Origin: Betaproteobacteria bacterium
GTDB lineage: Bacteria; Pseudomonadota; Gammaproteobacteria; Burkholderiales; Usitatibacteraceae
Assembly (NCBI GenBank): GCA_016708825.1
Contig: JADJEZ010000011.1
Location: 82,171-146,170, forward strand
DNA length: 64,000 nt
Reading direction: 5' to 3'
Positions 14,476 to 55,354 of the stretch are shown here, piece after piece. A model generated the notes under the pieces. The model saw only the letters and a program-made list of their open reading frames with translations, ran no database searches and was not told the DNA's origin. Both the position numbers and the translations under genes were made by a program. Position 1 is the stretch's first letter. Every line of letters starts with the position of its first letter.

Positions 14476-16007
<1,532 letters not shown>

Positions 16008-16012
16008 CCGCC

Positions 16013-17320: not shown

Positions 17321-17327
<7 letters not shown>
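16013..17327 (+). CDS. pfp: 6-phosphofructokinase, probably PPi-dependent; frame broken near 16260 and again near the 3' end
   Basis: PFK motifs [40 protein letters not shown]. The N-terminus (ORF tail ..16297) joins ORF 16384.. as [23 protein letters not shown]. Neither frame 1 nor frame 2 has a stop before hppA. The only nearby stop is 17325-27 in frame 0, so the 3' end is uncertain. PPi specificity is inferred from the adjacent H+-PPase. Confidence 0.75.
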
Positions 17328-21237
<3,910 letters not shown>

Positions 21238-38336: not shown

Positions 38337-39658
38337 TCACTCGAGGCCGTAGCGCTTTATCTTCCTCCACAGCGTGGACTTGTCGATGCCGAGGATCTCG
38401 GCGGCGCTCGCCCGGTTGCCCTGCGTCTCCCTCAGCGTCTTCGCGATGAAGTAGGCCTCGATCTCCTCGAGGCTCTGCGGCTCGATCAGCTCCACGGCCC
38501 GGCCCGGGCCGGTGCCCTCCTGCGCGAGCCCCGGCGGCAGCACGTCGGTGTCGAGCATGTCGGTCTCGGTGAGGACGATCATCGACTGGATGGCGTTCTC
38601 GAGTTCCCGAGCGTTGCCGGGCCAGTCGTGGCGCATGAGGGCCGCGAGCGCCCGCGTGGTGATCCCCTTCACGGGCTTGCCCAGGCGCACCGAGTGGCGC
38701 GCCAGGAAATAATTGGCCAGGAGGGGAATGTCGCTGCGCCGGTCGCGAAGCGGAGGCATCACGATTTCCACGATGCGCAGGCGATAGTAGAGATCCATCC
38801 GGAAAGCGCCGCTTTCCACGAGCGCGGGCAGGGGACGGTTGGTCGCGGCGATGAGGCGAACGTCGGCTCGCCTCGGTTCGGTGTCGCCCATCCGGTAGAA
38901 CGTTCCGTCCTGGAGCACGCGCAGGAGCTTCGCCTGGAAGGCGGGCGAGGCGTTGTTGACCTCGTCGAGGAAGAGGGTCCCGTGGTCGGCGGACTCGAAG
39001 AGCCCGGCCTTCGCGCGGTCCGCCCCGGTGAAGGCGCCGCGCTGGTAACCGAAGAGCTCGCTCTCGATCACGTTCTGTGCGCGACCACCTCCTTGCCGGT
39101 TCCCGACTCCCCGGTGATGAGCACGCAGCAGTCGTAGCCAGCCGACGCCCGCACCATGCGGCGCACCTGCTCGACGGCCGCGTTCTTGCCGACCAGGCCG
39201 TCGAGGTCGGCGTAGGCGCGGTTCGTCTCGCGCAAGCGGATGTTCTCGCGATTGAGCTGGTGGAACTCGAGCGCCCGGTCGACTATGCGGCGCAGGTCAT
39301 CGGGCTCGAAGGGCTTGCGCAGGTAGTCGTAGGCGCCGCCCTTGAGCGCTTCCACTGCCGATTCGACCGTGGCGTGCCCCGTGAGCAGGATCACCTGCGT
39401 CATCGCGTCGCGCGCCTTCGCGAAACGCAGCACCTCCAGGCCGCCGATGCGCGGCATGCGCAGGTCCGTGACCACCACCGCGACCTCGTGGTCCTCGAGG
39501 TAGCCGAGCGCGTCCTGGGAGCTGTCGACTTCCACCACTTCCGCAACGGCCGTCGCAAGGACCTCGCGGATCATGCGACGCATGGCGGGATCGTCCTCGA
39601 CCAGCAGGACGGTCGCGCGGGCGGCGCCCTGCTGCGCCTTGGCGATGCTCTCGTCCAC
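38337..39658 (-). pseudogene. NtrC-family sigma54-dependent response regulator with internal approximately 65-nt deletion in the AAA+ domain
   Basis: Receiver (LLVEDDPAMRRMI.., VVTDLRMP, KPF) and Walker A (ITGESGTGKEVVA) lie in ORF 39068..39658. ESELFGY, GAFTGA, GTLFLDEV, RVIAATN-like, GNARELEN and a Fis-type HTH lie in ORF 38337..39071. The roughly 22 residues that normally separate GKE.. from ..ESELFG are missing and the frame changes at about 39068. Confidence 0.8.
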
Positions 39659-39662
39659 GGTC

Positions 39663-41219
39663 CTAGGCCGCGAGGGGGAGCGTTATCACGAAACGCGCGC
39701 CGCCCTGGTAGGCGGCGTCGCAGTGAATGCTGCCGCCGATCCGCGAGACGATGGAATGGCTGATCGCGAGGCCAAGCCCCGTGCCGGCGCTCTCGGTCTT
39801 GGTGGTGAAGAACGGGTCGAAGAGCTTGCCGCGGTTCTCCGGGGCGACGCCCGGCCCGTTGTCCGTGACGGAGACGACCGCGAAGCCGCCCTCGACCGCG
39901 GAAGAGACGTCCACGCGGGGGCTGGACGCCGCCGCGGCTGCCTGCACCGCGTTCACCATCACGTTCACGAGCACGATGTCGAGCTGGCCCGGGCCGCCGC
40001 GCACGAGGAGCTCTCCCTGCACGTCCGTTTCGACCGCGGCGCTGTAGCGCCGTCCCTGGCAGTTGGCGACCGCCTCCACGGACTCCCGGATCAACGCGTT
40101 GATCTCGCACGTCTCCGCGTGGCACACGTCCCGGCGCGCATAGGCAAGGAGGTCGTCGACGATTCGCGCGCAGCGCCGTGTCTCCCCATGGATGACGCTC
40201 GCATACTCGGCGCGTTTCGCCGCGTCGGCGTTGCCTTCATTGAGGAGCTTCGCGTAGCCCAGGATCGTGCCGAGCGGCGTGTTGAGCTCGTGGGCGACGC
40301 CGGCGGCGAGCTGGCCCATGGCGACCAGCTTCTCGGCCTGCTGCGAGATTTCCTCGAGCCGCCGCCAGTCGGTGATGTCCTGCAGGATGATCGCCGCGCT
40401 TGCCTGCGCGGAACGCGGATTCTGGCGGAAGAAGGTGAGGTTGAGCGATACCTGTCGCACCCGCGCGCCGATGTTGAGCGCGAGCACCTGGTTGCTCACC
40501 TGCTGCTCGTAGAGGAACGCCTCGCGCAGCACCTCGCGACCCGGCTCGTCGGATTCCAGGAGGTCGAAGAGGTTGGCCCCGGCCAGTGCTTCGCCGGAAA
40601 CCTCGAAGAGCGCCTCGGCCTGGCGGTTGGAGAGCGTGACGCGGAAATCGCCGTCCACGGCGAGCAGCGCGCCCGGCAGCCCCTGCAGGATGGCCTCGTG
40701 GCGGTTGCGTTCGGCGATGATGGACAGTTGCGCCTGCTCCATCTCGCCGAAGAGCGATCCCAGGTTTCCCGCGAGGGTGTTGTATTCCGTCTCGAGGGGC
40801 GCGAGGAGCGGGCGCGCGACGCCCTGCAGCCGGATCGGCTCGAGCGATCCCTCGTTGGCGTGGTGTACGGCTTCGTGCAGCGCGGCGAAGCCCCGGGCGT
40901 ATCCGCGGAGAACAACCGCCGCACCGGCCAGGACGATGCCGGCGACCACGAGGGCGGCGAGCAAGGCATCGTGGGGCGTTCCCAGTCCGTGAAACGCCGC
41001 GAGCAGTGCCGCAATCGACAGGGATGCGACGGCGCCGAGGGCGACTCCCGCGAAGACGCGCGACCCGGCTCCGGCATGCGCGCGCACGCGCGGCCCGTCG
41101 TCGTGTTCGCTTTCCGCCGGATTCGCCGTGATCTCCACGCTGCCTGTTCCTTCCCCATTCGCGCTCTCGCCGAAACACTCCGGCGCGAGGCGCAGCACTT
41201 CCCTCGGGGATGATGCCAC
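39663..41219 (-). CDS. PAS-domain sensor histidine kinase (partner of the NtrC-type regulator)
   Basis: Two TM helices with a very short loop, a PAS-like region, H-box LAAGVAHELNTPLG, and N/G boxes (NVMVNAVQA, DNGPGV, GTGLGLAIS). Intact 518-aa ORF with uncertain start. Confidence 0.8.
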   Translation of the reverse strand: MASSPREVLRLAPECFGESANGEGTGSVEITANPAESEHDDGPRVRAHAGAGSRVFAGVALGAVASLSIAALLAAFHGLGTPHDALLAALVVAGIVLAGAAVVLRGYARGFAALHEAVHHANEGSLEPIRLQGVARPLLAPLETEYNTLAGNLGSLFGEMEQAQLSIIAERNRHEAILQGLPGALLAVDGDFRVTLSNRQAEALFEVSGEALAGANLFDLLESDEPGREVLREAFLYEQQVSNQVLALNIGARVRQVSLNLTFFRQNPRSAQASAAIILQDITDWRRLEEISQQAEKLVAMGQLAAGVAHELNTPLGTILGYAKLLNEGNADAAKRAEYASVIHGETRRCARIVDDLLAYARRDVCHAETCEINALIRESVEAVANCQGRRYSAAVETDVQGELLVRGGPGQLDIVLVNVMVNAVQAAAAASSPRVDVSSAVEGGFAVVSVTDNGPGVAPENRGKLFDPFFTTKTESAGTGLGLAISHSIVSRIGGSIHCDAAYQGGARFVITLPLAA

Positions 41220-41268
41220 GGACCCGACCGGGGCCCTTGATCCCGGTCAGGTCCGCGCCTTCCGCGCT

Positions 41269-42461
41269 TCAGAAGATGAATTGCAGGCCGAGCGAATACT
41301 GCTTGTAGTCGCGCTGCGACGGGTTGACGGGATTCTGCACGTCGAAGCGGACGTCGGCGTACTCGAAGCTCAGCTTGAGCAGCTGGCCGTCGATGAGGTA
41401 GTGGAAGCCGACGCCGTCCCACTTCTGGTCGCGATACCCGAGGGGAGGTTGTACTCGGAGCGCTCGTGCCGCCCGAACACCTGGAGCCGCCCGGGGCCGA
41501 TCTTGCTGGGCAGCAGGTAGCCGGCCTTCACGTACCAGCCCTCGAGGTCGGTGGTGGTCGGCAGGTTCGGGTCGGGCGAGAGCCCGAAATGCGCCTTGCC
41601 GGTGTCGCGCCGCATCACGGCGGCCGATGCGGTGATGGTGCCGGCCGCGGTCGGCTGCTCGTAGAAGATGTCGGCGGTCCACGCCTTGGTGTCCTTCGCG
41701 TCGTCCTTGCCGACGAAGTCGCCGTAGGCCACCTTCTGCTGGTAGTCGTAGGCCGCGCCGATGGTGAGCACGCGCCTCGTGCCGAGGTAGGTGCCGCGGT
41801 AGCCGAAGTCGTACTCCGGGTCGAGCAGGCTCACGTGGACTCGCGCGGTCAGGCGAGGCGAGTCCTTCACCACCTCGTTGCCCTCGCGGCCGTCGGAAGC
41901 CATGACGCGGTACTGGAACTTCGCGTCGGCCAGGTTGCCCCACATCGCCACGCCCGTGTCGCGGCTGCCGCCCCAGGGCGTGTACGACAGCACCTCCGCG
42001 CGGTCCATGGTGAGTGCGTCGAAGCACGCCTCGAGGTTCTCGCGCGTGAACGTGTTCTTGAACCGCCCCACGATGAATCGCATCGCGTCGCTGTGGTCGA
42101 CCGTGATGTACGCGTCGCGGAAGAAGATGCTCTTGTCGTCGTCGCCTCCCCGGCTGTCGGCGGGCGCGTCGAGGTTCGCGTAGAAGCCCACGAGGTCGTT
42201 GTACTGCCCGGAAAAGGTGAGCCGGTTGCGGCGCAGGAAGAAGTCCGTGGAGCGGCCCGAGTCCGACGAGGAGGTGTAGCCGCGGTCCTGCGCCCAGCCC
42301 TGCACGGAGTAGTTGAACGTGAGACTGCCTTCCTTGCCGAAGGTGAGCGTCGGGCCCGCGGCCGCGGCGCCGGCGAAGCCCGCGAGCGCGAACGCGCAGG
42401 CCGTCGCGAGGCGGGCAGTGCGGCGCTTGCCGCGGTTCGATTCGATGGTGGCACGCTTCAT
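41269..42461 (-). CDS. outer-membrane porin (porin O/P-like beta-barrel), frame broken near 41443
   Basis: Signal peptide (..FALAGFAGAAAA), FFLRRNRLTFSG, alternating beta-strand pattern. After the shift the sequence is ..GYRDQKWDGVGFHYLIDGQLLKLSFEYADVRF..YSLGLQFIF*, ending in an aromatic residue. AGGAGGAGG RBS. Confidence 0.7.
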
Positions 42462-42483
42462 GGTGTTCCCCTCCTCCTAAGGA

Positions 42484-42988
42484 TCACTTCTTGTACGCGT
42501 TCGCGAGCTGCGCCGCGTTTTCGGACTTGTGGCAGTTCGCACACAGCTCGGAGGACCGGGGCCGCGGGTCCTTCACCATCTCCGTGTGCGCCAGTTCCTT
42601 CTTGATCAGCCGCGCGTTGCCCTTGTGGCAGCCGGCGCAGGAGTTGTCGACGCTCTTGTGGTCGGTGTGCCACTTGCGTGCTCGGGGCCGCGGCGCGGGT
42701 GCCGTTGTGGCACTTGAAGCAGGACGAGGCGCCCATGCCGCAGGCGTTCGCCTCGGCGATCGGGGAGTAGGTGCGAAGCGCGTCGCGAACGTCCGCGATG
42801 GCCTCCGCTCCCCATCCCGCGGGTTGCGCGCGGCTCGCCTCGGGGCCGTCGAACCGCTCCGGGCTCGATGCCGCCAGCGACCACGCGAGCGCCACGGCTG
42901 CGCATGCGGCGGTTCCCGCAGCGGTGCGCAGGATGCCGCGCGCGAGTCCGCGAAGCCTGTCGACCAGGGTCGTCTTGCTTTCCTTCAT
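42484..42988 (-). CDS. triheme c-type cytochrome, membrane/signal-anchored, frame broken near 42685
   Basis: Hand translation gives CFKCH, then after a 1-nt shift ..ARKWHTDHKSVDNSCAGCHKGNARLIKKELAHTEMVKDPRPRSSELCANCHKSENAAQLANAYKK*. That is three CxxCH motifs. The N-terminal hydrophobic segment is AAGTAACAAVALAWSLAA. A GGAGGA RBS precedes the ATG, which overlaps the upstream stop. Confidence 0.75.
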
Positions 42989-43242
42989 TTCTCGTTCCTC
43001 CGGGGTGGTGGCTCGGCTGCCGCCTTTTGCTCGGCGGCGGACTGGATATCGCTTTCGCTCAATGCGCTCACGCAGGTGCAGGTGGGCCTGTCGCCCTTGA
43101 ATTTCAGGCGCCGTTTCTTCACGGCCGGGCCGGACGCCGCCTCGCCCTCCCGGGCCGCCCCGGCATCGCGCTTGGGCGCTTCCTCGGCGTGGGCCGCCGG
43201 CGCGAGCATCGCGGCGAGCAGCAACCAGCTGGAAATTCTCAT
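42985..43242 (-). CDS. small secreted protein (85 aa) with CTC motif
   Basis: ATG 43242 follows GGAGG. Signal peptide MRISSWLLLAAMLAPAAHA, then a charged, low-complexity mature part containing ..DRPTCTCVSAL... No family recognised. Confidence 0.5.
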   Translation of the reverse strand: MRISSWLLLAAMLAPAAHAEEAPKRDAGAAREGEAASGPAVKKRRLKFKGDRPTCTCVSALSESDIQSAAEQKAAAEPPPRRNEK

Positions 43243-43279
43243 GGGGCCTCCGGTGAACAAGGTCCGACCCGCGATCATC

Positions 43280-43295
43280 AGCAGATTGCGTGCCA
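43280..43295 (-). promoter_or_regulatory. sigma54 (-24/-12) promoter P3, upstream of small protein-triheme-porin
   Basis: Minus strand TGGCACGCAATCTGCT versus consensus TGGCACG-N4-TTGCW. It lies about 40 nt upstream of ATG 43242. Confidence 0.7.
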
Positions 43296-43382
43296 CTGGC
43301 GCGGACCGTTTTATAAACAGGGAGTTAATGCGCGCCGCCGCCATCACGGCATTGCATTACCCCCTTCGGCGTCCGGGGGCTT

Positions 43383-44642
43383 TCAATTTGCAACCGCGCG
43401 CGCATCGCTTCCCGTCGCGGCGGGCGCAGCGACTTCCACGTCCTCCAGGTAATAGCGCGCGTTCACGGCCCGGGCGAGCGCTTCGTCCAGGGTCGCGCGC
43501 GTTGCGTCGTCGAGCCCGGGGTTGCGACGCCGCATGTCGGCGAACATGCGCTCGTAGTGTTCGCCGGGAGCGACTTCCGTTCGCAGCCGCAGGCGCCATT
43601 GGCCGGGCGCGACCTGGACATCGAATTGCATCTCGTGGCGGGCATCGGGCGCGAGGCGCGTGTCGGCGATTTCCTTGTCGAGCCCCACCGTGAGCTGCCG
43701 GCCGATCGTGTGGTCCCCGACGAGGACGTGCGTTCCCCGGCCGAGCAGGTAGACGCGAACGAGGATCCGGGGAACGACATAGGTGGGCAGGTAATGCCCG
43801 GCGTCCCGGTTGGCGAGGACGACGGTGACGCGAAGCCGGCCCTCGTCCACGCGCGAAACGGAGATCTCGCGGCCGAGCGCGCCGCGCACCATCTGCGCGT
43901 CATGGATGCCGCGCCAGAGGTGGCGCCTCCCAGGCATGTGGCACGACTGGCAGTGGCGGCCTTCGCGCGCGTGGCGGCTGGCGCGCCATTCCTCGTAGGT
44001 GTTTTCGAGGAGCTTGCCGTTCACCTGGCGGCCGTCGGGTGCGAACTGGTGGCAGGTCGAGCAGAACCGGCTGTCGGAGAACGCGGCCTCGGCGACGAAT
44101 CCCCCATGGGGTTGGCGTTCGCTTCCGGCACCGGTGGTCGCCGCGATCGCGGGCCCGAAGCGCTGGTGCCGGCGCACGTGGCAGGCCGCGCACACCAGGC
44201 CCCGCAGGTGCAGGTCGCCGGACACCCAGGGCGGCGGCGCGGACGCGGGCGCGTTGGGCCAGCCGCGTTCTATCGCCATGAGTGCCTTCTGCTCGGCGAG
44301 CGGCGCGTGGCAGCGCAGGCAGTCGTTGCCGTGTTGCTGGTCCATGGTGCGCAACTGCCAGAGGATGCCGGGGCCCATGGCCCGGCTGTGCAGGCTCGTC
44401 TTCCAGTCGGCGAGCTGCGCGGCGTGGCACACGCCGCAGGCTTCCGGCGAGAGGGCCGCTTCTTCGGGAGTGTGCGTGGCGGGAGGATCGCCTTGCGGCG
44501 CGAGGGGCTGCGCCCAGTGGCGCGCGAGAAACGCTGCGATGGCCTTGTCGGCCCGGTGCTCACGGAAAACCGCGATCCCGGCCCACAGGGCAAGGCCGGC
44601 GAGGGCGGCAAGCGCCGCCCCGCCGGCCCGGCGCAGGTTCAG
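43383..44642 (-). CDS. pentaheme c-type cytochrome with non-heme C-terminal domain
   Basis: Five CxxCH motifs (CGVCH, CLRCH, CAACH, CSTCH, CQSCH) after a TM/signal anchor (AALAALAGLALWAGIAVF), followed by about 170 aa without heme sites (..ANRDAGHYLPTY..). There is no ATG/GTG/TTG in frame near the anchor, so the start (CTG 44642/44636?) is unresolved. Confidence 0.75.
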   Translation of the reverse strand: MNLRRAGGAALAALAGLALWAGIAVFREHRADKAIAAFLARHWAQPLAPQGDPPATHTPEEAALSPEACGVCHAAQLADWKTSLHSRAMGPGILWQLRTMDQQHGNDCLRCHAPLAEQKALMAIERGWPNAPASAPPPWVSGDLHLRGLVCAACHVRRHQRFGPAIAATTGAGSERQPHGGFVAEAAFSDSRFCSTCHQFAPDGRQVNGKLLENTYEEWRASRHAREGRHCQSCHMPGRRHLWRGIHDAQMVRGALGREISVSRVDEGRLRVTVVLANRDAGHYLPTYVVPRILVRVYLLGRGTHVLVGDHTIGRQLTVGLDKEIADTRLAPDARHEMQFDVQVAPGQWRLRLRTEVAPGEHYERMFADMRRRNPGLDDATRATLDEALARAVNARYYLEDVEVAAPAATGSDARAVAN

Positions 44643-46135
44643 CCGCAGGGGTTGCCTCCGGGACCGCCGCCTCCGCCGCTGTCGCTCGCGCCGGTGCCGC
44701 CGCGCTTGTACGACTTGTCGTCGAGGATGATCTTGTTGGCGTGGATCGCGTAGGGGTTCACGATCGTGCGCCTGGCCACGTTCGCGGGATTGGCGGCCGG
44801 GCGGAAGAACGACTTCACGTCCGTGCGCCACGGGGAATCGGCCGGCAGGATCGGGTTGCCGGTCGAGTCGGGCAGGCTGGAAAGCGAATGCCATTCGACC
44901 ATGGCGCCGTCATAGAAGCGCACGGGGTAGCCCATGATGCCCGCGGAAGCGAATCCCGTGATCATCGCGCGGAAGGTCGTCTCGCAGTAGGAATAGACCA
45001 CGTCCCCGGCCTGGTAACCCGCACCGTCGCCGACGCCGCCGTAGGTGGCGTCGACGAAGCGGTAGCCGCCCGCGTCCGCGCCGCCGCTCATGTACGTCGC
45101 GATCGCCGCCTTCGGCTTGTAGGAAAAGCCCTTCGTCGAATCGAGCAGGTTGGTGAACTGGAGCTGCAGCGTGCCGCGGGGATGACCCTGGCGCGAGCCG
45201 CTGTTCTGGAACGTGCGCATGTAATCGTAGCCCGTGGGCGGCGCGCAGACCGCCGCGCCGCAGGCGGTGTACCCGGAGTCGCCCGCCTCGAGGCGCTCGC
45301 CGGCGCTGAACTGGCCGACGCTGCGCGCATCCCAGATGAACACGCCGTCGTCGCGCACGTTCACGTCCGTGGAGGGAAGCACCGCGAGCAGGTCCTCGAA
45401 GGTCGCCTGCAGGGCGGTGTTGTCGACGGGGATGTCCTTCACGCTCGCGGTCCCGTTGTTGGGCGGCGTGCTCGCCGTCGCCGTGAAATCCGCGGCCGCC
45501 ATGCCGTTGGTGTTGATCCACTGGTTGCCGCCGTTCAGGACGGCGACGTTGCGCTTGTCGACGCCCCAGTAGCGCAGCGCGTACCAGCAGCGGCCCTGCG
45601 CCATCGCGTTGCCGGTACTGCCCGTTCCCATTCCGCAGACGATCATGTCGTTGGCGGGATCGATGCCGTACTTCTTCAGGAGCGCGTCCATCGACGCCCC
45701 GTCCGGCACCATGCTCACGGTCTCGATCACGCCGTTGGAGCGCGTCTGGACCCATTCGGAGGAGGGCGAGAGGTAGGTGAAGACCGTGGAGTTGTTCGGC
45801 TTCACGTACTCCGCGCCGGCGGGCCCCGTCGTGGCCTGGAAGATCACGAGCTTGCCGCTGATGCCGGCCGGGCGGTTGGCCCCCCAGTTAGAGATCCAGC
45901 GCTTGAGGGTGGCGGCGGTGACGAGGCCGTTCACGTTCTCCTCGTAGTTGTCCGCGGACGCCTGCGCGATCGTGTGCGGCGTGTTCACGGTGATCTTCAC
46001 CACGTTGCCGGCGGACGTGTCCTCGCGGCCGCCGCCCCCGCCGCAAGCCGCCAGTGCGAGGCAGGTCGCGGCGGCGAGGGCCATGCGCGGATTCACGATT
46101 TCACCCAGGGTGCTGCCGTGATGTTGCCTCGTCAT
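44639..46135 (-). CDS. tandem-rhodanese sulfurtransferase-like lipoprotein with Gly-rich C-terminal Cys tail
   Basis: Lipobox ..ATCLALAAC. Domain 1 is ..DMIVCGMGTGS..RCWYALRYWGVDKRNVAVLNGGNQW. Domain 2 is ..VFIWDARS..GHPRG..VVYSYCETTFRAMITG..GYPVRFYDGAMVEW, with a CxxxxR active-site-like loop. The protein ends ..GGGGGPGGNPCG*. ATG 46135 is preceded by GAAGGAGG; ATG 46159 is also possible. Confidence 0.75.
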   Translation of the reverse strand: MTRQHHGSTLGEIVNPRMALAAATCLALAACGGGGGREDTSAGNVVKITVNTPHTIAQASADNYEENVNGLVTAATLKRWISNWGANRPAGISGKLVIFQATTGPAGAEYVKPNNSTVFTYLSPSSEWVQTRSNGVIETVSMVPDGASMDALLKKYGIDPANDMIVCGMGTGSTGNAMAQGRCWYALRYWGVDKRNVAVLNGGNQWINTNGMAAADFTATASTPPNNGTASVKDIPVDNTALQATFEDLLAVLPSTDVNVRDDGVFIWDARSVGQFSAGERLEAGDSGYTACGAAVCAPPTGYDYMRTFQNSGSRQGHPRGTLQLQFTNLLDSTKGFSYKPKAAIATYMSGGADAGGYRFVDATYGGVGDGAGYQAGDVVYSYCETTFRAMITGFASAGIMGYPVRFYDGAMVEWHSLSSLPDSTGNPILPADSPWRTDVKSFFRPAANPANVARRTIVNPYAIHANKIILDDKSYKRGGTGASDSGGGGGPGGNPCG

Positions 46136-46197
46136 TTTCTGGCCTCCTTCACTGTGCATTCCGGTTGTCGCGGGTCAAGCCCGTCCGTACATGCGCT

Positions 46198-46213
46198 AGC
46201 ACATTGCGTGCCG
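46198..46213 (-). promoter_or_regulatory. sigma54 (-24/-12) promoter P1, upstream of rhodanese lipoprotein-pentaheme
   Basis: Minus strand CGGCACGCAATGTGCT, with GG and GC correctly spaced. It lies about 65 nt upstream of ATG 46135. Confidence 0.7.
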
Positions 46214-46457
46214 AACCCGATTCCCGAAGGAAAACAAGCCCTTGAGTATTGCCGGGCGGACGCGGCCCGTTGCACATTTCATCGGCCGGGGCGGTCCGTC
46301 GACATTTTGCAAGTTCCGGATCGCGCCTTCCGCGAGACGCGCGGCCGATTGCATTATCCAATCCGCCCATGACGTGGTGCGCCCCGATTGCGACATGCAC
46401 GCGCGTCGCATTCTCCCTGCCCGCGCGCCGCGCAGGGAAACCACGCTTCGGGGCCCG

Positions 46458-46473
46458 CGGCACGCAACTTGCT
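46458..46473 (+). promoter_or_regulatory. sigma54 (-24/-12) promoter P2, upstream of the TusA-like/YeeE operon
   Basis: Plus strand CGGCACGCAACTTGCT, about 40 nt upstream of the 46513 start. Divergent from P1. Confidence 0.7.
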
Positions 46474-46512
46474 ACCTTGCTTCACGGGTAGACTGCACGC
46501 AGGTGGGCAAGG

Positions 46513-46902
46513 GTGTTGAACAGAATGATCGGTCCGTTTGGCTGGTTCCTGCCGTCCCTTCGCGGCCGCGGCGATGCACGCTCCGGCCCGGCGAAGACCG
46601 TGGAGATCCCCGGGCACGGCGCGATGGTCGCCGACAACTCGGTCGATCTCACGGGCGCGACATGCCTGCGGACCAACCTCGTCACGAAGCGGGCGCTCGA
46701 CGCGGCGTTGCCCGGCTCGGTGATCGAGATCGTCTCGGACAACCTGAGTTCGGTGGAAACGATCCCCTTCATGCTGGCGGGACACAACTGCGTCCACCTG
46801 GGAACGCTCCACCTGGAGAGCGGCTGGAAGATCTATGCGCGCAAGGGCGCCGGCGAGGGCGCGTGCGACGGACCTGACGACGAAGGAGGCAAGGCAAGAT
46901 GA
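46513..46902 (+). CDS. TusA/SirA-fold protein with non-canonical cysteine motif
   Basis: ..VDLTGATCLRTNLVTKRALDAALPGSVIEIVSDNLSSVETIPFMLAGHNCVHL.. follows the TusA pattern but has C-L-R-T where TusA has C-P-x-P. An extra N-terminal extension of about 40 aa is present. The stop overlaps the yeeE ATG (ATGA). Confidence 0.6.
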   Translation: MLNRMIGPFGWFLPSLRGRGDARSGPAKTVEIPGHGAMVADNSVDLTGATCLRTNLVTKRALDAALPGSVIEIVSDNLSSVETIPFMLAGHNCVHLGTLHLESGWKIYARKGAGEGACDGPDDEGGKAR

Positions 46903-48348
46903 GTGAAGGCGTGGTCGACACCACCGAAGGGGTGGGTTCGGCGGTGGGCCGGGCGAATGCCCTGCGGGCTTCCGCCGTGGTGGGATTCTTCGTGCTGGTC
47001 ACGGCGTGGACGTTCGCCGTCGATACGCGCTACCTCTATTTTTCCGCCTACCTGTGGTTCGGGTTCGTCTACGGCATGAGCCTGCAGTACGGCAGGTTCT
47101 GCATGGCCTCGGCGATCCGCGACCTCTTCGCCGTGGGCGTGCCACGCATGGCGGTGGGCATCATGATCGCCGTGGTGCTCTTCAGCCTCGTGTCCGCCGC
47201 CGTCACCGTCGCCGGCAAGAGCACCTTCCACGCCTCCCCCATCGGCCTGTACTCGGTGGTCGGCGGCGCGATCTTCGGGTTCGGCATGGTGTTCACCGGC
47301 GGCTGCGCCACCGGGTCCTCTACAAGACGGGGAGGGCAGCGTCTCGGCGCTCCTCGTGGTGCTCTCGCTCAGTTTCGCGCAGGCGTACTTCGTGGACATC
47401 GGGGGCGCGCTCGACGCGCTGGTTCCCGCCTCGTGGGCCGCCTCGGCCGCCGCGAAGGGGATGCCGGCCGCGGTGTCGGCCACCCAAGGCTGGTACGACC
47501 AGTTCCTCGCGGGCTACGTGTGGGACCTGAAGAGCCTCACCGTGGGCGAGGCGCTCGGCTTCACGAGCCCGATGGCGAAAGCCTTCATCGGCAACTCCCT
47601 CATCAACGCGATCCTGCCGGCCATCGTGATCCTCGCGGTGATCTACGCCATCTGGTACCGGAAGGGCTACCTGCGCAAGCGCAAGGACGGCGCGCGCGGT
47701 GCCTCGGTGGAGCTGGCCGGCTGGTGGAGCATGGTCACCGCCTCGAAGCGCACGGCGATCGCGGGCCTCATCCTGGGCGTGGCCGCCGGCCTGCAGATGT
47801 GGGTGGTGCAGACCCTGCAGCAGAAGTTCGGCATCTCGAACGCGGGCGAGCTGCTCCAGGCGCTCGGCCATACCGAGGGGCTGAGCCTGCAGGACACGGT
47901 CTTCGACCCCGGCTACTTCTACGTGACGACCCAGGAGGCGCAGGGCGCGGCCTGGGTGCTCGCGAAGCTGGGCATCGACATCACGGACAACATCTTCTTC
48001 GGGCTGGAGAACGGCATTCCCAACCCGCTCTACAACCCGGTGCTGTGGATGTCGTTCTCGGTGATCGGCGGGGCGATGGTGATGGCGCTGCTCGCCAACG
48101 AGTTCAAGCTGAAGATGCCCACGCGCGAGATAGCGTTCTGGGCCATCTCCGGCGGCATCCTCATGGGCATCGGCGCGCGCGTCGGCCTGGGCTGCAACAT
48201 CGGCGCGTTCTTCGCGACGGTCACCAACGGCGACCCCTCGGGCTGGCTCTTCGGGCTGGGCATGACGGGCGGCGGCTACATCGGGGTGAAGTTCTTCAAC
48301 TGGTGGATCGAGCGCAAGATGGCAAAGGACACGCCGCTCGGGTTCTAG
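46899..48348 (+). CDS. YeeE/YedE-family sulfur-compound (thiosulfate-type) transporter, frame broken near 47317
   Basis: Three conserved Cys segments: GRFCMASAIRD, FTGGCATGS and GLGCNIGAF. Multi-TM. ORFs 46899.. and 47356..48348 join as GGCATGS/LYKTGEGSVSALLVVLSLSF if a C is restored in tCCtc. At about 483 codons it is longer than the E. coli-type YeeE I remember. Confidence 0.75.
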
Positions 48349-48387
48349 TTTCACCGGGCGGTATCGAAATCACGGCAACGGAGGCAA

Positions 48388-48648
48388 GTGGAAATGGCAG
48401 CCAAGTTCGAGAAGCTGGAAGAGGGCAACTACCAACTGGATGTCCAGGGCTATGTCTGCCCGCATCCGCAGATCTACGCGAAGAAGGCGCTGGAGAAGCT
48501 GAAGTCGGGCGATACGCTGCAGCTGCTGTTCGACAACCCGGCCTCGGGCGAGTCGATCCACGCGATGTGCGAGACGGAGGGCAACGACATCGTCGAGCGG
48601 GTGCAGGACGCCGGCAAGACGATGCGCTGGACCATCCGCAAGCACTGA
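48388..48648 (+). CDS. TusA-family sulfur carrier (YeeD-like)
   Basis: ..YQLDVQGYVCPHPQIYAKKALEKLKSGDTLQLLFDNPASGESI.. has the canonical CPxP motif. Located immediately after yeeE. Confidence 0.8.
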   Translation: MEMAAKFEKLEEGNYQLDVQGYVCPHPQIYAKKALEKLKSGDTLQLLFDNPASGESIHAMCETEGNDIVERVQDAGKTMRWTIRKH

Positions 48649-48667
48649 GACCGGCGCGAACGCACCC

Positions 48668-48976
48668 ATGCGCCTCGGCATCGTCGCCACGCACGAATCG
48701 GCGGGCCCGCAGCTGGCCGGGCTCGCCGCCGCCGCCGCGGCACGCGGCTGGCCCCTGCGCTGCTTCCTCACCGATTCCGGCGTGAAGCTCGCCGCGAACG
48801 GCGCGCTCCTCGCGCTCGCGCAATCCGGCAAGCTCCGGCTCGACGTCTGCGAGCACAGCTGGCAGCACCTGGGGATGGGAGAAGCGCCCGAGGGCGCCAC
48901 CCTCGGCAGCCAGTTCCAGAACGCGGAACTGGTGCGCGAGTGCGACCGCGTCCTGGTGCTCCCGGGCGGCGCATGA
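48668..48976 (+). CDS. DsrE/TusD-like small protein
   Basis: [50 protein letters not shown].. has a DsrE-fold-like beta-alpha pattern with a Cys after the second strand block. Short at 102 aa. Confidence 0.45.
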   Translation: MRLGIVATHESAGPQLAGLAAAAAARGWPLRCFLTDSGVKLAANGALLALAQSGKLRLDVCEHSWQHLGMGEAPEGATLGSQFQNAELVRECDRVLVLPGGA

Positions 48977-49220
48977 AGCGCATCCTCGTGATCGCGCGCC
49001 ACAACCAGGCCGAGGCGCTGCGGGTCGCGGCGGGCCTCACGCTCTTGAGCGACCCGGTGCAGGTCGCGGTGCTGGGTGCATTCGAGGACACGCCCGCCAT
49101 CGCGGAGCACCGCGAACTGCTGGAGTTCGCCGAGGTGCCCTGCGAGGTCGTGGACGATCAGCCCTGGGCGAGCGGCTCGCGGGCGCCATCCACGAGGCCG
49201 ACGTGGTCTACCTGATATGA
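48973..49220 (+). CDS. DsrF/TusC-like small protein, frame broken near 49165
   Basis: MKRILVIARHNQAEALRVAAGLTLLSDPVQVAVLGAFEDT..CEVVDDQP, then in the next frame LGERLAGAIHEADVVYLI*. ATGA overlaps at both ends. Confidence 0.4.
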
Positions 49221-49399
49221 GCGCGGGCCGGAAGATCCTCCTCCTCCACGATGCGGGCGATGCTCCAGAGGGGCTGGACGCCATCGCGGAGGCGATGCGC
49301 GCCCTGGGCGACGAGGTCGTGTTGCGCCCCTGCGCGGAGCCCTACGACGCCGTATTGGATGCGCTGGCCGCCGTCGACTCGGTCGTTTTCTGGCGGTAG
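49217..49399 (+). CDS. DsrH/TusB-like mini-protein
   Basis: MSAGRKILLLHDAGDAPEGLDAIAEAMRALGDEVVLRPCAEPYDAVLDALAAVDSVVFWR. The ..LLL.D.. and ..YD.V...L.....VV.W ending resemble the TusB/DsrH C-terminus. Only 60 aa. Confidence 0.4.
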   Translation: MSAGRKILLLHDAGDAPEGLDAIAEAMRALGDEVVLRPCAEPYDAVLDALAAVDSVVFWR

Positions 49400-49521: not shown

Positions 49522-50350
49522 ATGTTCCGGAATATTTCCTTCTTCCTCGCGAGTCTCTGCCTGTCCGTCGCGCCGGCCCACGCGACCGGGTACCTTGAAA
49601 CCCCGCAACCGCGTTCCTTCCAGTCCGGTATCGGGGTCGTGAGCGGATGGCACTGCACCGCCACGACGATCCAGGTTCGGATCGACGATGCCGCGCCCTT
49701 GAGCGCCGGCACCCGCACGCAACGCAACGATACCGTTCCGGTCTGCGGTCACGCCGACACGGGCTTTTCGCTTCTCGTGAATTTCAATTCGCCTCGACCC
49801 GGCGAGACCGCACCGCATCGTGGTTTACGCGGATGGCCTCGAGTTCGCACGCGTCGACGAGTTCCACGCCCGCAATCTCGGGGCCGACTTCCTGACGGGG
49901 CGGCAGTCGATGACGCAGCTCCTCAACTTTCCGAACGTCGGGGAGCGGATCCACCTCGGCTGGTCGGAGGAGGCCCAGAACTTCTCGATCGCCGGCAGGG
50001 ACGCCGCTCCCTCGCTTTCGGGCGTCTACTACGGCGCCGAATTCGTCGACCAGTTCGCGGCGTGCTCCACGGCGCCCGCCCAGGCGCCACGAAAGGCCCA
50101 GTTCTCGGTGGCGATCGCGGAGGGCAGGCTGACGCTCGCGTCGCTGCTGGACGACGGCACGCGATGCACGCTTTCCGCACCGGGCAGGCTCGAGCCGGAC
50201 GGCTACTTCCGCACCTTCGTCGATGAGACCCTGTCGAGCAGCTGCGTCTTCTACAGCGGGGGTTTCCGGCTTGCCGTCAATGGCGAACGTCTCGAGGGAA
50301 GAAGCGTCGACGGCGTCTGCCAGAATCATCGCGCGGTGGGCGCCAAGTAG
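49522..50350 (+). CDS. secreted hypothetical protein, frame broken near 49800
   Basis: Signal peptide MFRNISFFLASLCLSVAPAHA, then ..GIGVVSGWHCTATTIQVRIDD..VCGHADTGFSLLVNFN. It continues in ORF 49820..50350 (..IVVYADGLEFARVDEF..). No family recognised. Confidence 0.5.
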
Positions 50351-50412: not shown

Positions 50413-51672
50413 ATGGTCATTCCCATTTCCCGCGCCGGTCCTTCGCCCACCGGGCCGCAGTCGACCTGGGCCGTCTGGACCTCGTGCCCGCACCGCGTGA
50501 TGTTCCTGCCGGGCGCGCTCCAGCTCATCGCCGCGATCGCGCTCGTCGCCTGGGAAGTCGGCGGGCGAAGCCTGGGGCTCTGGGCCACGCCGGCCTGGAC
50601 CGTGCCTCCCGCCTGGAGCCACGCGTACCTGATGCTCTTCGGCCTGTTTCCGTGGTTCGTGTTCGGATTCGCGATGACCGCGATCCCGAACTGGACGAAC
50701 GTGCGCATCGCGCGCGGGGCGTGGCTCGCCTGCGCGCTGCCCATGATCGCCGGGCTCGTGCTCTTCCACGCGGGGCTCGTCGCGCACCGTGAACTCGTGG
50801 TGGCGGGCGGCGCCTTGCAGCTCGCGGGCTGGCTCGCGGGTTGCGTTGCGCTCGCGCGGATCGTGTTCGCGGGCGCGGGGCGCGATGCCCAGGCGATATC
50901 GATCGTGGTGCTGCTCTTCGTCGGCGGCCTCTCGGCGGCGTTCTTCCTCGCGGCCATCGCGCGCCTGGACGCGGACTGCGTAGCCCTTTCCGCGAACGCC
51001 GGCCTGTGGCTCTTCCTGCTGCCGCTCTTCCTGGTCGTGGGCCACCGGATGATCCCGTTCTTCTCGAGCCGCGTGCTGTCCGGCTACGCGATGTACCGGC
51101 CGTCGTTCTCGCTGCCGTTCCTGGGTGCGGCCTGCGTCACCCACTACCTCCTCGAGAGCGCCTCGGCGACGGGCTGGACGTGGATCGCGGACGCGCCCAT
51201 GGCCGCGTGGGTGGGCTGGCTCGTGTGGAAGTGGGGGCTCGCGCAAAGCTTTCGGGCGCGGCTCCTCGCGATGCTGCACGTCTCGCTCACCGTGCTCGCC
51301 GCGGCGCTCGCGTTTTCGGCCGTCGCGAGCCTCGCGACACTCGCGGGATACCCCGGCCTTTTCGGGCGCGGCCCGCTGCACCTGCTCGCCGTGGGCTACA
51401 TCGCGGCCATGACGCTGGGCATGGTCTCGCGCGTCTCCCTCGGGCACGCGGGGCGCGCGCTCGAAGCGGACGCGATGACCTGGTACGGGTTCCTCGCGCT
51501 GATCGGCGTGGGCGTGGTCCGCGCCGCCGCGGATTTCGCGCCGCTGGCCGGCGCGCCACGGGCGGCGCTGCTCGGCGTCTCCGCGCTCGCCTGGATCGTC
51601 GTCGTGACGAGCTGGGCGGTGCGCTTCGTGCCCTTGTACCTCCAGCCGCGCCGCGACGCCCGGCCCGGCTAG
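50413..51672 (+). CDS. nnrS: NnrS-family heme/copper membrane protein
   Basis: SHAYLMLFGLFPWFVFGFAMTAIPNWT, GHRMIPFFS, LLAVGYIAAMTLGMVSRVSLGHAG. About 12 TM. Intact; start uncertain. Confidence 0.8.
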   Translation: MVIPISRAGPSPTGPQSTWAVWTSCPHRVMFLPGALQLIAAIALVAWEVGGRSLGLWATPAWTVPPAWSHAYLMLFGLFPWFVFGFAMTAIPNWTNVRIARGAWLACALPMIAGLVLFHAGLVAHRELVVAGGALQLAGWLAGCVALARIVFAGAGRDAQAISIVVLLFVGGLSAAFFLAAIARLDADCVALSANAGLWLFLLPLFLVVGHRMIPFFSSRVLSGYAMYRPSFSLPFLGAACVTHYLLESASATGWTWIADAPMAAWVGWLVWKWGLAQSFRARLLAMLHVSLTVLAAALAFSAVASLATLAGYPGLFGRGPLHLLAVGYIAAMTLGMVSRVSLGHAGRALEADAMTWYGFLALIGVGVVRAAADFAPLAGAPRAALLGVSALAWIVVVTSWAVRFVPLYLQPRRDARPG

Positions 51673-51697
51673 CTCGCGCGGCAGCCCGCCCGGCGCG

Positions 51698-52237
51698 TTA
51701 CGCGGGAAACGCGACGCCGCGCCGCGCCGCCATGGAGCGCCCGAGGGCCTCCAGGTCGGCGGCTGAGCAATGGCGCTTCACGAGACCGGGAATCGCCCCT
51801 TCCTCCGCCGGGATGTGCGTGTCGTAGATCGCCTGCAGCGCGGCGATGTCGGCCGCGTCCATCGAACGGGCCATGCCGTCGGCGATCGCCTGCAGGGGCT
51901 TGCGGATCTTCGCCCACGCCGGCGCCATGCGGCCGTGGTCATCCTCGAGCCGCGCGCGCAGTGCGCGGAACTGCTCGAGTTCCGCGCCCGGGGGAATCCG
52001 GTTCTCGAGAAGCGGGAAGAGGTCGAGATCCTCGTCCTCGTGGTGGTGCGGCGCCGCCTTCTCGAAATAGCGCAGCACCGCGAGGGCGGCGTTGCTCGCG
52101 TCCGCGTCCACGCCCTTGTCCGCGAGGTGCGCGGGGAGCTTCGCGAGCGTCTTCAGCTGCTTCTCGATCCTGCGGTGGCATCCCATCCACATGCCGATGG
52201 GGTCGTCGAATCCCGCGGGGGTGTCGAAGAGGTTCAT
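51698..52237 (-). CDS. hemerythrin-domain (HHE cation-binding) protein
   Basis: MNLFDTPAGFDDPIGMWMGCHRRIEKQL.., ..APHHHEDEDLDLFPLL.., LEDDHGRM. Convergent with nnrS. Confidence 0.7.
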   Translation of the reverse strand: MNLFDTPAGFDDPIGMWMGCHRRIEKQLKTLAKLPAHLADKGVDADASNAALAVLRYFEKAAPHHHEDEDLDLFPLLENRIPPGAELEQFRALRARLEDDHGRMAPAWAKIRKPLQAIADGMARSMDAADIAALQAIYDTHIPAEEGAIPGLVKRHCSAADLEALGRSMAARRGVAFPA

Positions 52238-52346
52238 GGGCGCAATTTTACGCGCCTGCATTTGGCCGGAGTGCTGCGCTGCAATACGCGATCCTGCCGC
52301 CGGGCGCGGATGCGCCCCCGTGGCGGGAGCGCACGAGTTGCGCGCC

Positions 52347-53018
52347 TCAGCCCCGCGTCCGGTCGGCGATCACGACGTAGCGCTGGTCGGTGCCGGGCTG
52401 CACGGCGTCGAAGGGCCAGCAGGTGATGAGCGTGAGTTGCGGCGAGTCGGCGGGATCGAGGGGCCGCGTGTCGTGCTTGTCCACGACGGCCACCTCGCGC
52501 ACGAGGTAGCGGCTCACGCGCCCGCGCGCGTCCTCGACCAGGATCTCCTCGTTTTCGTGCAGGTCGCGCAGGAACGCGAAGTGCGTGTCGCGGTGGGCGA
52601 CGATCACGCTGTTGCCCTCCGAGCCCGGGGCGGCGGTGCCGTCCACGTGACCCGGGCCGAAGGCGAGGGAGCGCCCGCTGGTGCCGGCGAGCACGAAGAG
52701 CTCGACGTGGCGTGACGGCACCGTGAGCCGCGCCACGGGGTGGGTGTCGGCCCACGGCCACGGGCGCTTCGCACCGTCCTCCTGCATGCCGGACCACGAC
52801 GAGGCGATGAGGCGTTGCGCGAGCGCGGCCTTGGCCTGGATCCACACGGCGCCGCCCAGTTGCCAGCCGGCGAGGGCGACGAGGAGCAGGACGAGCGCGA
52901 CGACGGGCGCCCTCCGGCTGTTGCGCACGGGCCGGCCCGGTGTCGCGGACGGCTCCGTACCGTAGGCACGTCCGCGCAAGGCGTAGCTCGAAGTGCCGTT
53001 CACGTGCCAGGCGCTCAT
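52347..53018 (-). CDS. class GN (proteobacterial) sortase
   Basis: TM anchor (VVALVLLLVALAGW), ..GNSVIVAHRDTHF.. and catalytic ..QLTLITCWPF... ATG 53018 overlaps the stop of the target gene (ATGA). Only the tail of track ORF 52347..54344 is real. Confidence 0.85.
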   Translation of the reverse strand: MSAWHVNGTSSYALRGRAYGTEPSATPGRPVRNSRRAPVVALVLLLVALAGWQLGGAVWIQAKAALAQRLIASSWSGMQEDGAKRPWPWADTHPVARLTVPSRHVELFVLAGTSGRSLAFGPGHVDGTAAPGSEGNSVIVAHRDTHFAFLRDLHENEEILVEDARGRVSRYLVREVAVVDKHDTRPLDPADSPQLTLITCWPFDAVQPGTDQRYVVIADRTRG

Positions 53019-55219: not shown

Positions 55220-55354
55220 TCGGCAGGCCCATTACGCGCGGGCGGGAGGGCGCCATGCTTGGGGAAAGCGGGAAGGGCGCCGACCAATTCGGGCGGAAAA
55301 ATGACGCGGAAGCGGGGACGCTCCTCCATTCCCGGGAAATAGGGGAGCGTCCCC

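Follow-up and report, generated by a model that had tools for sequence, protein, structure and literature searches.

How does zero-valent sulfur pass from the outside of a sulfur-oxidising bacterium to the enzymes of its cytoplasm? This question is raised by a gene cluster at positions 38337-49399 of the stretch of DNA analysed here (the window), which comprises 64,000 nucleotides (nt) of contig JADJEZ010000011.1, assembly GCA_016708825.1, from a betaproteobacterium of the Usitatibacteraceae. The cluster consists of 13 genes in two divergent halves. The minus-strand half encodes a rhodanese-type lipoprotein, a pentaheme and a triheme c-type cytochrome, a small secreted protein, a porin, and a histidine kinase with an NtrC-type activator, and the plus-strand half encodes two TusA proteins, a YeeE-family transporter and three small cytoplasmic proteins (table 1). 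To call the genes, we relied on matches to protein families and on related contigs; the G+C content of the window is about 69%, so most of its long open reading frames are spurious. The present analysis establishes the gene content, homologies, conserved residues, synteny and promoter elements of the cluster, and all genes that the original prediction, made from the sequence alone, had listed on the two strands are present. We consider it somewhat more probable than its opposite that these genes form an inducible, envelope-spanning system for the uptake of zero-valent sulfur and its relay to the cytoplasm of sulfur-oxidising Beta- and Gammaproteobacteria.

The first aspect that carries this reading is that the two halves belong together. 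With the lipoprotein family as query, a scan of one genome per species found 80 loci in Beta- and Gammaproteobacteria (125 relatives in all); 79 of the loci come from metagenome assemblies. Eleven core genes were detectable by tblastn with reference proteins; the remaining two, which encode the small secreted protein and the third small cytoplasmic protein, have diverged too far for this search and were scored by position and conserved motifs. All 11 detectable genes are present in 67 of the 80 species-level loci, and in the remaining 13 a contig end accounts for every missing gene. In 56 of these 67 loci the genes are co-linear on one strand in the order tusA1-yeeE-tusA2-(102)-(83)-(~60-70 aa)-rhd-cyt5-small-cyt3-porin-kinase-activator, where the small cytoplasmic proteins are given by their length in amino acids (aa), and 11 of the 67 have the divergent layout of the window. 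Judged from gene order, the divergent layout is an inversion of the first six genes of the co-linear one. A third order (cyt3-porin-kinase-activator ... tusA1-yeeE-...) likewise holds both halves together, and the halves adjoin in every informative locus; the two operons do co-occur in related genomes, as the original prediction required.

The carriers of the cluster belong mainly to lineages of sulfur and iron oxidisers, namely Thiobacillus, Sulfuricellaceae, Sideroxydans, Gallionella, Thiogranum, Thiohalomonas and Hydrogenophilus; further hosts are Rubrivivax, Usitatibacteraceae and unclassified Burkholderiales. In three species-level metagenome-assembled genomes (MAGs; loci L021/L087, L023 and L084) the genes sat-aprBA are located near the cluster. 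At L087 1070-6883, sat-aprB-aprA, a Tll0287-like gene and a gene for a CxxCxxCC-domain protein lie directly upstream of tusA1, and the same genes occur in the flanks of L023 and L084. On this gene adjacency the cluster appears tied to dissimilatory sulfite oxidation in these three loci, which also points to a relay toward cytoplasmic oxidation.

The second aspect is shared control. The pattern GGCACGCAANNTGC occurs three times in the window, whereas zero occurrences are expected, and each copy is located upstream of an operon head (tusA1, the rhodanese gene and the small-protein gene). Across the loci, a -24/-12 element is found within 250 nt upstream of tusA1 in 62 of 75 (71 of 75 with a relaxed pattern), upstream of the group of small-protein and triheme genes in 53 of 74, and upstream of the rhodanese gene in 21 of 79, where it is conserved in the clade with the divergent layout. 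The same scan across loci detected no such element upstream of yeeE, tusA2, the 102-aa, 83-aa, pentaheme or kinase genes. With three elements where none is expected and a gene set kept in 67 of 80 loci, neither the promoter pattern nor the gene set is due to chance. The operon heads carry the -24 GG and -12 GC of sigma-54 promoters next to an AAA+ activator with a Sigma54_activat domain, and the adjacency of the PAS kinase and the NtrC-type activator (462 aa when intact, present in 67 loci) is conserved across loci; the predicted sigma-54 control of the cluster is well supported at the sequence level. Between the divergent promoters, an alignment of eight loci of the window clade reveals four conserved TGCAA-containing boxes, which are candidate binding sites of the activator. 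A scan of the control region for inverted repeats gave short, weak pairs only, and scans for terminators and sigma-70 promoters were uninformative. Because the two N-terminal hydrophobic segments of the kinase are joined by a very short loop, its PAS domain is probably cytoplasmic.

The components of the minus-strand half are best understood in relation to the Ext proteins of Geobacter sulfurreducens. These comprise the rhodanese-family lipoprotein ExtH, the OprO/P-like porin ExtI, the small protein ExtJ and the pentaheme selenoprotein ExtKL. The original prediction had named the same part types and was largely right in this; however, no triheme cytochrome belongs to ExtHIJKL, and the name ExtL denotes the C-terminal portion of ExtKL. 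The lipoprotein matches the NCBIfam ExtH model (NF040901) in two stretches with 105 bits (E 3.7e-30) and does not reach the cut-off of 200, and on this match it is an ExtH homologue that stands outside the equivalog. Its lipobox Cys31, followed by Gly, and Cys384 in the loop YCETTFRA are conserved in 80 of 80 loci, and Cys497 in 79 of 80; the lipoprotein and the active-site-type loop that had been read from the sequence are thereby borne out, and the catalytic Cys is conserved. The two rhodanese domains that had been read from the sequence are weakly supported. The Pfam Rhodanese match has an E of 0.001, below the cut-off, and the tandem rhodaneses 8k55 (E 0.008) and SseA (1urh, E 0.047) give weak alignments with the family profile, in which Cys384 falls on their catalytic Cys. 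The C-terminus of the lipoprotein is a Gly-rich tail, GGGGGPGGNPCG, which ends in NPCG and contains Cys497. An exhaustive profile search with the lipoprotein family yielded 354 representative clusters; in many distant full-length ExtH-like members a Cys stands at or near the end of a Gly-rich C-terminal tail, and others stop right after the motif DKAYK.

The porin matches the NCBIfam model porin_ExtI (NF040900) along its full length (positions 8-403 of 403) and, at 330 bits (E 1.8e-98), clears the cut-off of 150; its match to Pfam Porin_O_P has an E of 3.5e-13, while a sequence search of the Protein Data Bank (PDB) gave no match. By its model scores it is an OprO/P-type channel of about 400 aa and not a generic phosphate porin, an identity that would have spoken against the original prediction. 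Many Arg and Lys residues of the porin are conserved, and its one invariant Cys, Cys146, lies in the motif FxRENLEAC. The 85-aa secreted protein has no Pfam or NCBIfam match. It contains two Cys in the conserved motif RLK[FY][RK]...P.C.C, and a positional homologue with the same CxC motif was found in most of the 68 loci examined. The stop of its gene overlaps the start of the triheme gene by 4 nt. By its position the protein is a putative counterpart of ExtJ.

A 2025 preprint describes ExtKL (MccSep) as a periplasmic polysulfide reductase that is essential for the respiration of elemental sulfur (S0) and also reduces selenite; its catalysis depends on the selenocysteine Sec325 and the heme-ligating Cys239. 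The profile of the pentaheme family matches MccSep (9wt8, E 6.7e-10) and the pentaheme cytochrome c552 of Thermochromatium tepidum (5ze8, E 6.6e-9) in the PDB, while the NCBIfam ExtKL model gives 34 bits and its cut-off of 250 is not reached. The heme motifs and the region after the fifth motif are shared with c552, whose host is a sulfur-oxidising gammaproteobacterium. Four of the CxxCH motifs are conserved in 72-73 of 73 sequences, and the first in 64-67 of 73, where N-terminal trimming is uncertain. Residue U325 of MccSep (AGHSIPDG-U) aligns to Met or Val (AGHHFPTY-M), the CC segment that includes Cys239 aligns to residues other than Cys, and the pentaheme family has no conserved non-heme Cys. 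According to these alignments, the pentaheme cytochrome shares the fold family of MccSep and not its catalytic site.

The start of the pentaheme gene deserves attention. No ATG, GTG or TTG is present between its overlap with the rhodanese gene and the first heme motif, but a CTG that follows GGAGG overlaps the rhodanese stop (CTGA, 44639-44642) and is conserved in the clade, with TTGA in L015. The gene therefore probably starts at this CTG, and the TTGA of L015 suggests translational coupling from a non-canonical start, which is also why gene callers truncated the gene. Readthrough of the TGA stop of the rhodanese gene into the pentaheme gene was considered and rejected, the two genes being in different frames. 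In many homologues, including L021, L038, L045, L051, L057 and L083, the N-terminus of the pentaheme cytochrome begins with a lipobox, which in L051 has Asp at +2 and would favour retention in the inner membrane; in the window clade a signal anchor that looks uncleaved is found in place of the lipobox. The triheme cytochrome, which has an N-terminal signal or anchor, is c7-like (Pfam Cytochrome_C7, 25.9 bits). Its residues C83, H108, H111 and H135 are invariant in 75 of 75 sequences, and Cys83 lies seven residues before heme motif 1. The three invariant His outside the motifs suggest bis-His ligation of the hemes, and His/Cys ligation by Cys83 was downgraded because these His are available.

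The plus-strand half has a published counterpart. In the literature, the YTD cluster groups YedE and TusA with a DsrE-like protein and a pair of conserved hypothetical proteins, and a 2026 paper describes the last three as DsrEFH type II, a 29-kDa heterotrimer whose subunits are unrecognisable by sequence and which passes sulfur in vitro from TusA via DsrE Cys67 to DsrC. The plus-strand half is this yeeE-tusA-dsrEFH type II layout with an extra TusA upstream: a YeeE/YedE-family membrane protein is located next to a CPxP TusA, followed in the same order by a small DsrE-like protein with one essential Cys and two small conserved hypothetical proteins, and the mass of the trio is about 26.5 kDa here against the 29 kDa reported. 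YeeE has three invariant Cys, C68, C136 and C433. It scores 127 bits with NCBIfam YedE/FdhT (cut-off 350, not reached) and 90 bits (cut-off 400, E 2.3e-25) and 67 bits (cut-off 645) with the TsuA models; TusA2 scores 50 bits with YedF (cut-off 79) and 37.5 bits with TsuB/YeeD (cut-off 147.5). Both proteins thus remain below every NCBIfam equivalog cut-off, those of TsuA/TsuB and of YedE/YedF alike. In TusA2, Cys22 (CPHP) and Cys59 are conserved in 78 of 78 sequences. The upstream TusA1 has no CPxP motif and carries Cys47 in the motif G-x-x-C-x-R in 77 of 77; the stop of its gene overlaps the start of yeeE by 4 nt. The three small proteins had been predicted as DsrE/F/H-like. For the 102-aa protein, whose Cys61 (VCEHS) is present in 78 of 78, the DsrE fold is confirmed by an AlphaFold2 model with a predicted local distance difference test score (pLDDT) of 92.8, which Foldseek matches to YchN (1jx7) and to A. 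vinosum DsrE (2hy5_A, TM-score 0.87, root mean square deviation 2.1 Å). The 83- and 60-aa proteins can be assigned by position and size only.

In the window itself, five of these genes are disrupted, and the original prediction, although right about their presence, read silently across the frameshifts in the porin, triheme, yeeE and 83-aa genes and the gap in ntrC. An identical copy of the rhodanese lipoprotein was found on seven metagenome contigs, six of which (L001-L006, some from wastewater) are 99.4-99.7% identical to the window; L003 and L001 served as corrected references for the frameshifted genes. Relative to L001-L006, 1 nt is missing from the window in the porin gene (~41441) and at each of two sites in yeeE (~47316 and ~47328), 2 nt are missing in the triheme gene (~42674) and 4 nt in the 83-aa gene (~49158). 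A gap of 67 nt at 39076/39077 splits ntrC, which is intact in L003, with the loss of Sigma54_activat profile positions 41-64, and a second gap, seen in comparison with the closest MAG (L007), breaks ispB at 38089/38090. The two gaps have exactly the same length and are 987 nt apart, which suggests an artefact of processing or assembly. The single-base losses all fall within C or G runs, as is expected of long-read errors. The cluster genes covered by L001-L006 are called intact, apart from a split yeeE in L005 and the short-called pentaheme gene. Because the independent contigs are intact with the two exceptions named, the 1-nt losses fall in homopolymer runs and the essential ispB carries a gap of the same 67-nt length as ntrC, the indels and gaps are probably assembly errors and not decay; pseudogenisation of the window copy was rejected on the same grounds.

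What function(s) could such a set of proteins perform? The uptake-and-relay reading is founded on the conserved fusion of the halves, the shared promoters, the hosts, which are mainly sulfur oxidisers, and the presence of at least one invariant Cys in each of the following components: the porin (C146), the rhodanese (C384, C497), the small secreted protein (CxC), the triheme cytochrome (C83), YeeE (three Cys), TusA1 (C47), TusA2 (C22, C59) and the DsrE-like protein (C61). The cargo would be polysulfide or persulfide sulfur, with thiosulfate as a possibility. The PAS kinase and the NtrC-type activator would switch on the sigma-54 promoters of tusA1-yeeE, of the small-protein/triheme/porin genes and, in the divergent layout, of the rhodanese gene. 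The Arg/Lys-rich ExtI-type porin would admit anionic sulfur species to the periplasm, where the lipoprotein rhodanese, probably anchored in the outer membrane, would take sulfane sulfur on Cys384 and would probably carry it on Cys497 at the tip of the Gly-rich C-terminal arm. The pentaheme and triheme cytochromes and the CxC protein may carry out S-S chemistry that makes or trims protein-bound persulfide, in either direction. The YeeE-family channel, with its three invariant Cys, would move the sulfur across the inner membrane, and the two TusA proteins would hand it to the DsrE-type protein and its two small partners (type II DsrEFH), from which it could enter cytoplasmic oxidation via Dsr or sHdr and then adenosine 5′-phosphosulfate (APS) reductase and Sat. 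The features described above are the basis from which we infer the substrate of this scheme, which way its electrons flow and each of its transfer steps.

A more specific version of the scheme recalls the Sox system, in which the periplasmic carrier SoxY bears a Gly-flanked Cys at the tip of a flexible C-terminal arm and acts with c-type cytochromes, including SoxXA. In this version a relay of cysteines might span the full envelope, from porin Cys146 over rhodanese Cys497/Cys384, the CxC motif and triheme Cys83 to the Cys of YeeE, TusA and DsrE; the cytochromes would act oxidatively, loading the carrier Cys from sulfide or polysulfide in the manner of SoxXA and SoxY, their electrons would pass to the respiratory chain and the persulfide would be imported. 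We hold this version to be rather unlikely. The resemblance to SoxYZ/SoxXA is one of logic and not of homology, and the Cys arm is located here on the rhodanese lipoprotein. The product would be imported to the cytoplasm, whereas in Sox it is hydrolysed in the periplasm, and the invariant His of the triheme cytochrome suggest bis-His ligation in contrast to the His/Cys ligation of SoxA.

Several observations weigh against uptake and relay of sulfur. The regulator of the window copy is disrupted; were this damage real and not an assembly error, the strain would carry a silent system. For the lipoprotein, an AlphaFold2 model built with 19 close homologues has a mean pLDDT of 46, too poor for a fold search, and the two-domain architecture rests on the weak sequence matches given above. 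Searches of the 83- and 60-aa families found no PDB or profile link to DsrF or DsrH, a PDB sequence search with the 102-aa protein gave nothing meaningful, and profile-profile comparison among the three families gave probabilities below 5%, which is why the DsrF/DsrH identity of the two proteins is positional and size-based. Searches with the DsrE-like protein, by single sequence and then by profile, did not reach the type II DsrE of Desulfobacterota and Nitrospirota, and the published DsrEFH type II mostly accompanies a reductive-type DsrAB in these phyla. The pentaheme cytochrome, according to the alignment, is without both MccSep residues needed for polysulfide reduction, Sec325 and the heme-ligating Cys239. 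The known chemistry of MccSep cannot therefore apply to it, and what the cytochromes do, and in which direction, is where the model is weakest. Finally, the ExtH and ExtI families carry the NCBI label of a selenite/tellurite reduction operon, and the best NCBIfam matches of YeeE and TusA2, both sub-threshold, are YedE/FdhT and YedF.

These last two points belong to an alternative in which the porin admits selenite or tellurite, the rhodanese and the cytochromes reduce it in the periplasm, and selenium is taken up through the YedE/YedF-like pair, either to be detoxified or to be built into selenoproteins or selenouridine. The porin does exceed the ExtI cut-off, a Geobacter extI mutant shows less selenite and tellurite reduction, and MccSep reduces selenite. 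We nevertheless find this option quite improbable, because the YedE and YedF scores (127 vs 350 and 50 vs 79 bits) are far under their cut-offs, no selD, selA or selB was found in the flanks examined, the DsrE-type relay, the adjacency of sat-aprBA and hosts mainly of sulfur-oxidiser lineages indicate sulfur, and the physiological role now assigned to the Geobacter cluster itself is S0 respiration. That role leads to another alternative, periplasmic reduction of polysulfide or S0 as in Geobacter, serving as electron sink or detoxification, with the YTD half salvaging some of the sulfur. Homology of the pentaheme cytochrome to the polysulfide reductase MccSep, and of the porin and rhodanese to ExtI and ExtH, speaks for it, but both catalytic residues are missing from the whole pentaheme family, the flanks contain neither an ExtMNOPQS-type quinol-oxidising module nor any other electron-input module, the hosts are mainly oxidisers of sulfur and iron, and the strict fusion with an import-relay module favours uptake; we give it little credence.

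Assimilatory scavenging, in which a TsuA/TsuB-like system takes up thiosulfate or sulfane sulfur under sulfur limitation for cysteine, tRNA thiolation and cofactors, would fit the mode of control, since sigma-54 and NtrC are typical of nutrient-scavenging systems, and TusA and DsrE-type proteins also serve biosynthetic sulfur transfer (TusA-TusBCD). YeeE/YeeD of E. coli is described as importing thiosulfate for assimilation (PMC11073785), and the YeeE of the cluster matches TsuA at E 2.3e-25. However, both TsuA scores are far under their cut-offs, two multiheme cytochromes are unexpected in an assimilatory importer, and the dissimilatory sat-aprBA genes in three MAGs and hosts mainly of lithotroph type point elsewhere, so that this function has a low probability in our view. 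The original prediction had placed a redox conduit of the outer membrane and periplasm in the minus-strand half, and extracellular electron transfer through a porin-cytochrome complex could be considered, given that ExtHIJKL was first listed among putative outer-membrane conduits, that a Geobacter strain left with only this one of the conduit clusters could still reduce Fe(III)/Mn(IV) oxides to some extent, and that some carriers of the cluster (Sideroxydans, Gallionella) oxidise iron. Yet ExtI is dispensable for Fe(III) reduction and ExtKL is a periplasmic enzyme; the porin is an OprO/P-type channel of about 400 aa and not a sheath of 20 or more strands. The cytochromes carry only 5 and 3 hemes, against the large sheath porin, the periplasmic cytochrome with at least 8 hemes and the outer-surface cytochrome gene of Mtr/Pcc conduits, none of which is encoded here, and electron export would have no use for the obligatory link to YeeE-TusA-DsrE. 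With a channel for a porin and no surface cytochrome, an electron conduit is a poor description of the cluster, and we regard it as barely credible. Of the predicted coupling between a periplasmic module and a cytoplasmic relay, the union of the two halves stands and the conduit is not supported, and selenium or tellurium is a weaker option for the cargo than sulfur.

Is a system of this composition already known? The cluster resembles ExtHIJKL(MNOPQS) of G. sulfurreducens in its rhodanese-like lipoprotein, OprO/P-like porin, small secreted protein and pentaheme cytochrome, but the order differs (rhd-cyt5-small-cyt3-porin here, extH-I-J-KL in Geobacter), the triheme cytochrome is additional, and a sigma-54 two-component system takes the place of the divergent LysR (or Fur) of the ext cluster. 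The YeeE-TusA-DsrE module is fused to the cluster here, unlike in Geobacter, and the hosts are sulfur oxidisers, whereas those of the Geobacter ext cluster are sulfur reducers. The genes ExtMNOPQS (12- and 10-heme cytochromes, a Rieske protein and cytochrome b) are absent among the called neighbours in the window clade and in three other loci. The YTD/type II layout differs from its description in the literature in being always joined here to an ExtH/ExtI-like module and a sigma-54 two-component system. The nearest parallel found is a remark on Desulfurivibrio dismutans, in which YeeE, a lipoprotein sulfurtransferase and a porin are co-localised (RS05145-RS05170) and the import of polysulfide sulfur has been proposed (PMC12142623). 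This locus, compared by description only, belongs to a different phylum and to sulfur disproportionation, and the text of PMC12142623 mentions no cytochromes, DsrE trio or sigma-54 two-component system. Each half of the cluster belongs to a described family; in the literature searches, no paper was found on this fusion, its sigma-54 two-component control, a relative of MccSep without the Cys and with triheme and CxC partners, or the C-terminal Cys arm. The claim that no characterised system has this combination held in these searches; the plus-strand half itself is not novel and had been published as YTD.

Table 1. Features of the gene cluster and its control elements, with positions in the window.
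Feature	Position	Strand	Evidence
NtrC-type sigma-54 activator (receiver, AAA+, Fis helix-turn-helix)	38337..39658	-	Pfam Response_reg, Sigma54_activat, AAA_lid_14, HTH_8
PAS histidine kinase, 491 aa	39663..41138	-	Pfam PAS, HisKA, HATPase_c; called in L003
ExtI-type outer-membrane porin, 397 aa corrected, ends QFIF	41269..42461	-	NCBIfam NF040900; Pfam Porin_O_P
Triheme c-type cytochrome, 168 aa corrected, 3x CxxCH	42484..42988	-	Pfam Cytochrome_C7
Small secreted protein, 85 aa, signal peptide	42985..43242	-	Position and conserved motif
Sigma-54 -24/-12 promoter-like element TGGCACGCAATCTGC, ahead of small-protein/triheme/porin genes	43281..43295	-	
Pentaheme c-type cytochrome, ~419 aa, 5x CxxCH	43383..44642	-	Profile match to MccSep/c552 fold family
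ExtH-like rhodanese lipoprotein, 498 aa, loop YCETTFRA	44639..46135	-	NCBIfam ExtH and alignment
Sigma-54 -24/-12 promoter-like element CGGCACGCAATGTGC, ahead of rhodanese gene	46199..46213	-	
Divergent control region, four conserved TGCAA-containing boxes	46214..46457	.	Eight-locus alignment, window clade
Sigma-54 -24/-12 promoter-like element CGGCACGCAACTTGC, ahead of tusA1-yeeE	46458..46472	+	
Atypical TusA (tusA1), 125 aa	46525..46902	+	Pfam TusA 32.7 bits, cut-off 28.6
YeeE/YedE-family inner-membrane sulfur transporter, 483 aa corrected	46899..48348	+	Pfam Sulf_transp 129 bits
Canonical TusA (tusA2), 84 aa, CPHP	48394..48648	+	Pfam TusA 70 bits
DsrE-fold protein, 102 aa	48668..48976	+	AlphaFold2 and Foldseek
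83-aa conserved protein, DsrF position of type II DsrEFH	48973..49220	+	Position and size; present in 78 loci
60-aa conserved protein, DsrH position of type II DsrEFH	49217..49399	+	Position; ~60-70-aa positional homologue in most loci

Some further genes were noted in and around the cluster. In the Burkholderiaceae MAG of L087, two tandem IS110-family transposase genes are located between the porin and kinase genes (15175-18146). A protein of about 236-260 aa without a family hit is encoded directly after the activator gene in L088 (18025-18807) and L092 (18650-19360), and tblastn detects it in L025, L033, L035 and L071, whose annotations are Thiogranum, Thiohalomonadales or Gammaproteobacteria; the protein may represent a further component of the system that is particular to one clade. 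Just past the small genes of the DsrE trio, the window contains an NnrS gene and a divergent hemerythrin gene (50413-52261; L001 3894-5718), a pair found again in most of the window clade but absent from the co-linear loci. The gene of a 275-aa secreted protein with no assigned function is located between NnrS and the 60-aa gene (~49523-50350). It occurs in the near-identical contigs L001 and L002, and none of the 80 genome loci gave a match to it; it is also frameshifted in the window, by a small indel at ~49792 relative to independent short-read contigs. Farther on (~52347-55231; L001 939-3784), the gene of a VIT/VWA-domain protein precedes one of the sortase family, an uncommon find among proteobacteria, and beyond the latter are genes for an OmpR-type response regulator and LpxR.

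The cluster holds, in one conserved and co-regulated unit, candidate parts for every step from the outside to the cytoplasm. It addresses two open questions, namely how zero-valent sulfur in insoluble or polymeric form crosses the outer membrane and how sulfane sulfur reaches cytoplasmic Dsr or sHdr, and its carriers, at least 67 genomes at species level, are sulfur and iron oxidisers that are common in the environment. It also links two recently described systems, MccSep/ExtKL (2025) and DsrEFH type II (2026). By the account of the MccSep authors, it is not known how polysulfide enters the periplasm, and the cluster points to ExtH and ExtI as the uptake parts that have so far been lacking in both systems. 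Should the cysteine relay across the full envelope, rather unlikely as we hold it to be, prove true, it would be the long-sought route by which zero-valent sulfur from the periplasm or the outside is delivered to cytoplasmic Dsr or sHdr in sulfur oxidisers that do not form globules.

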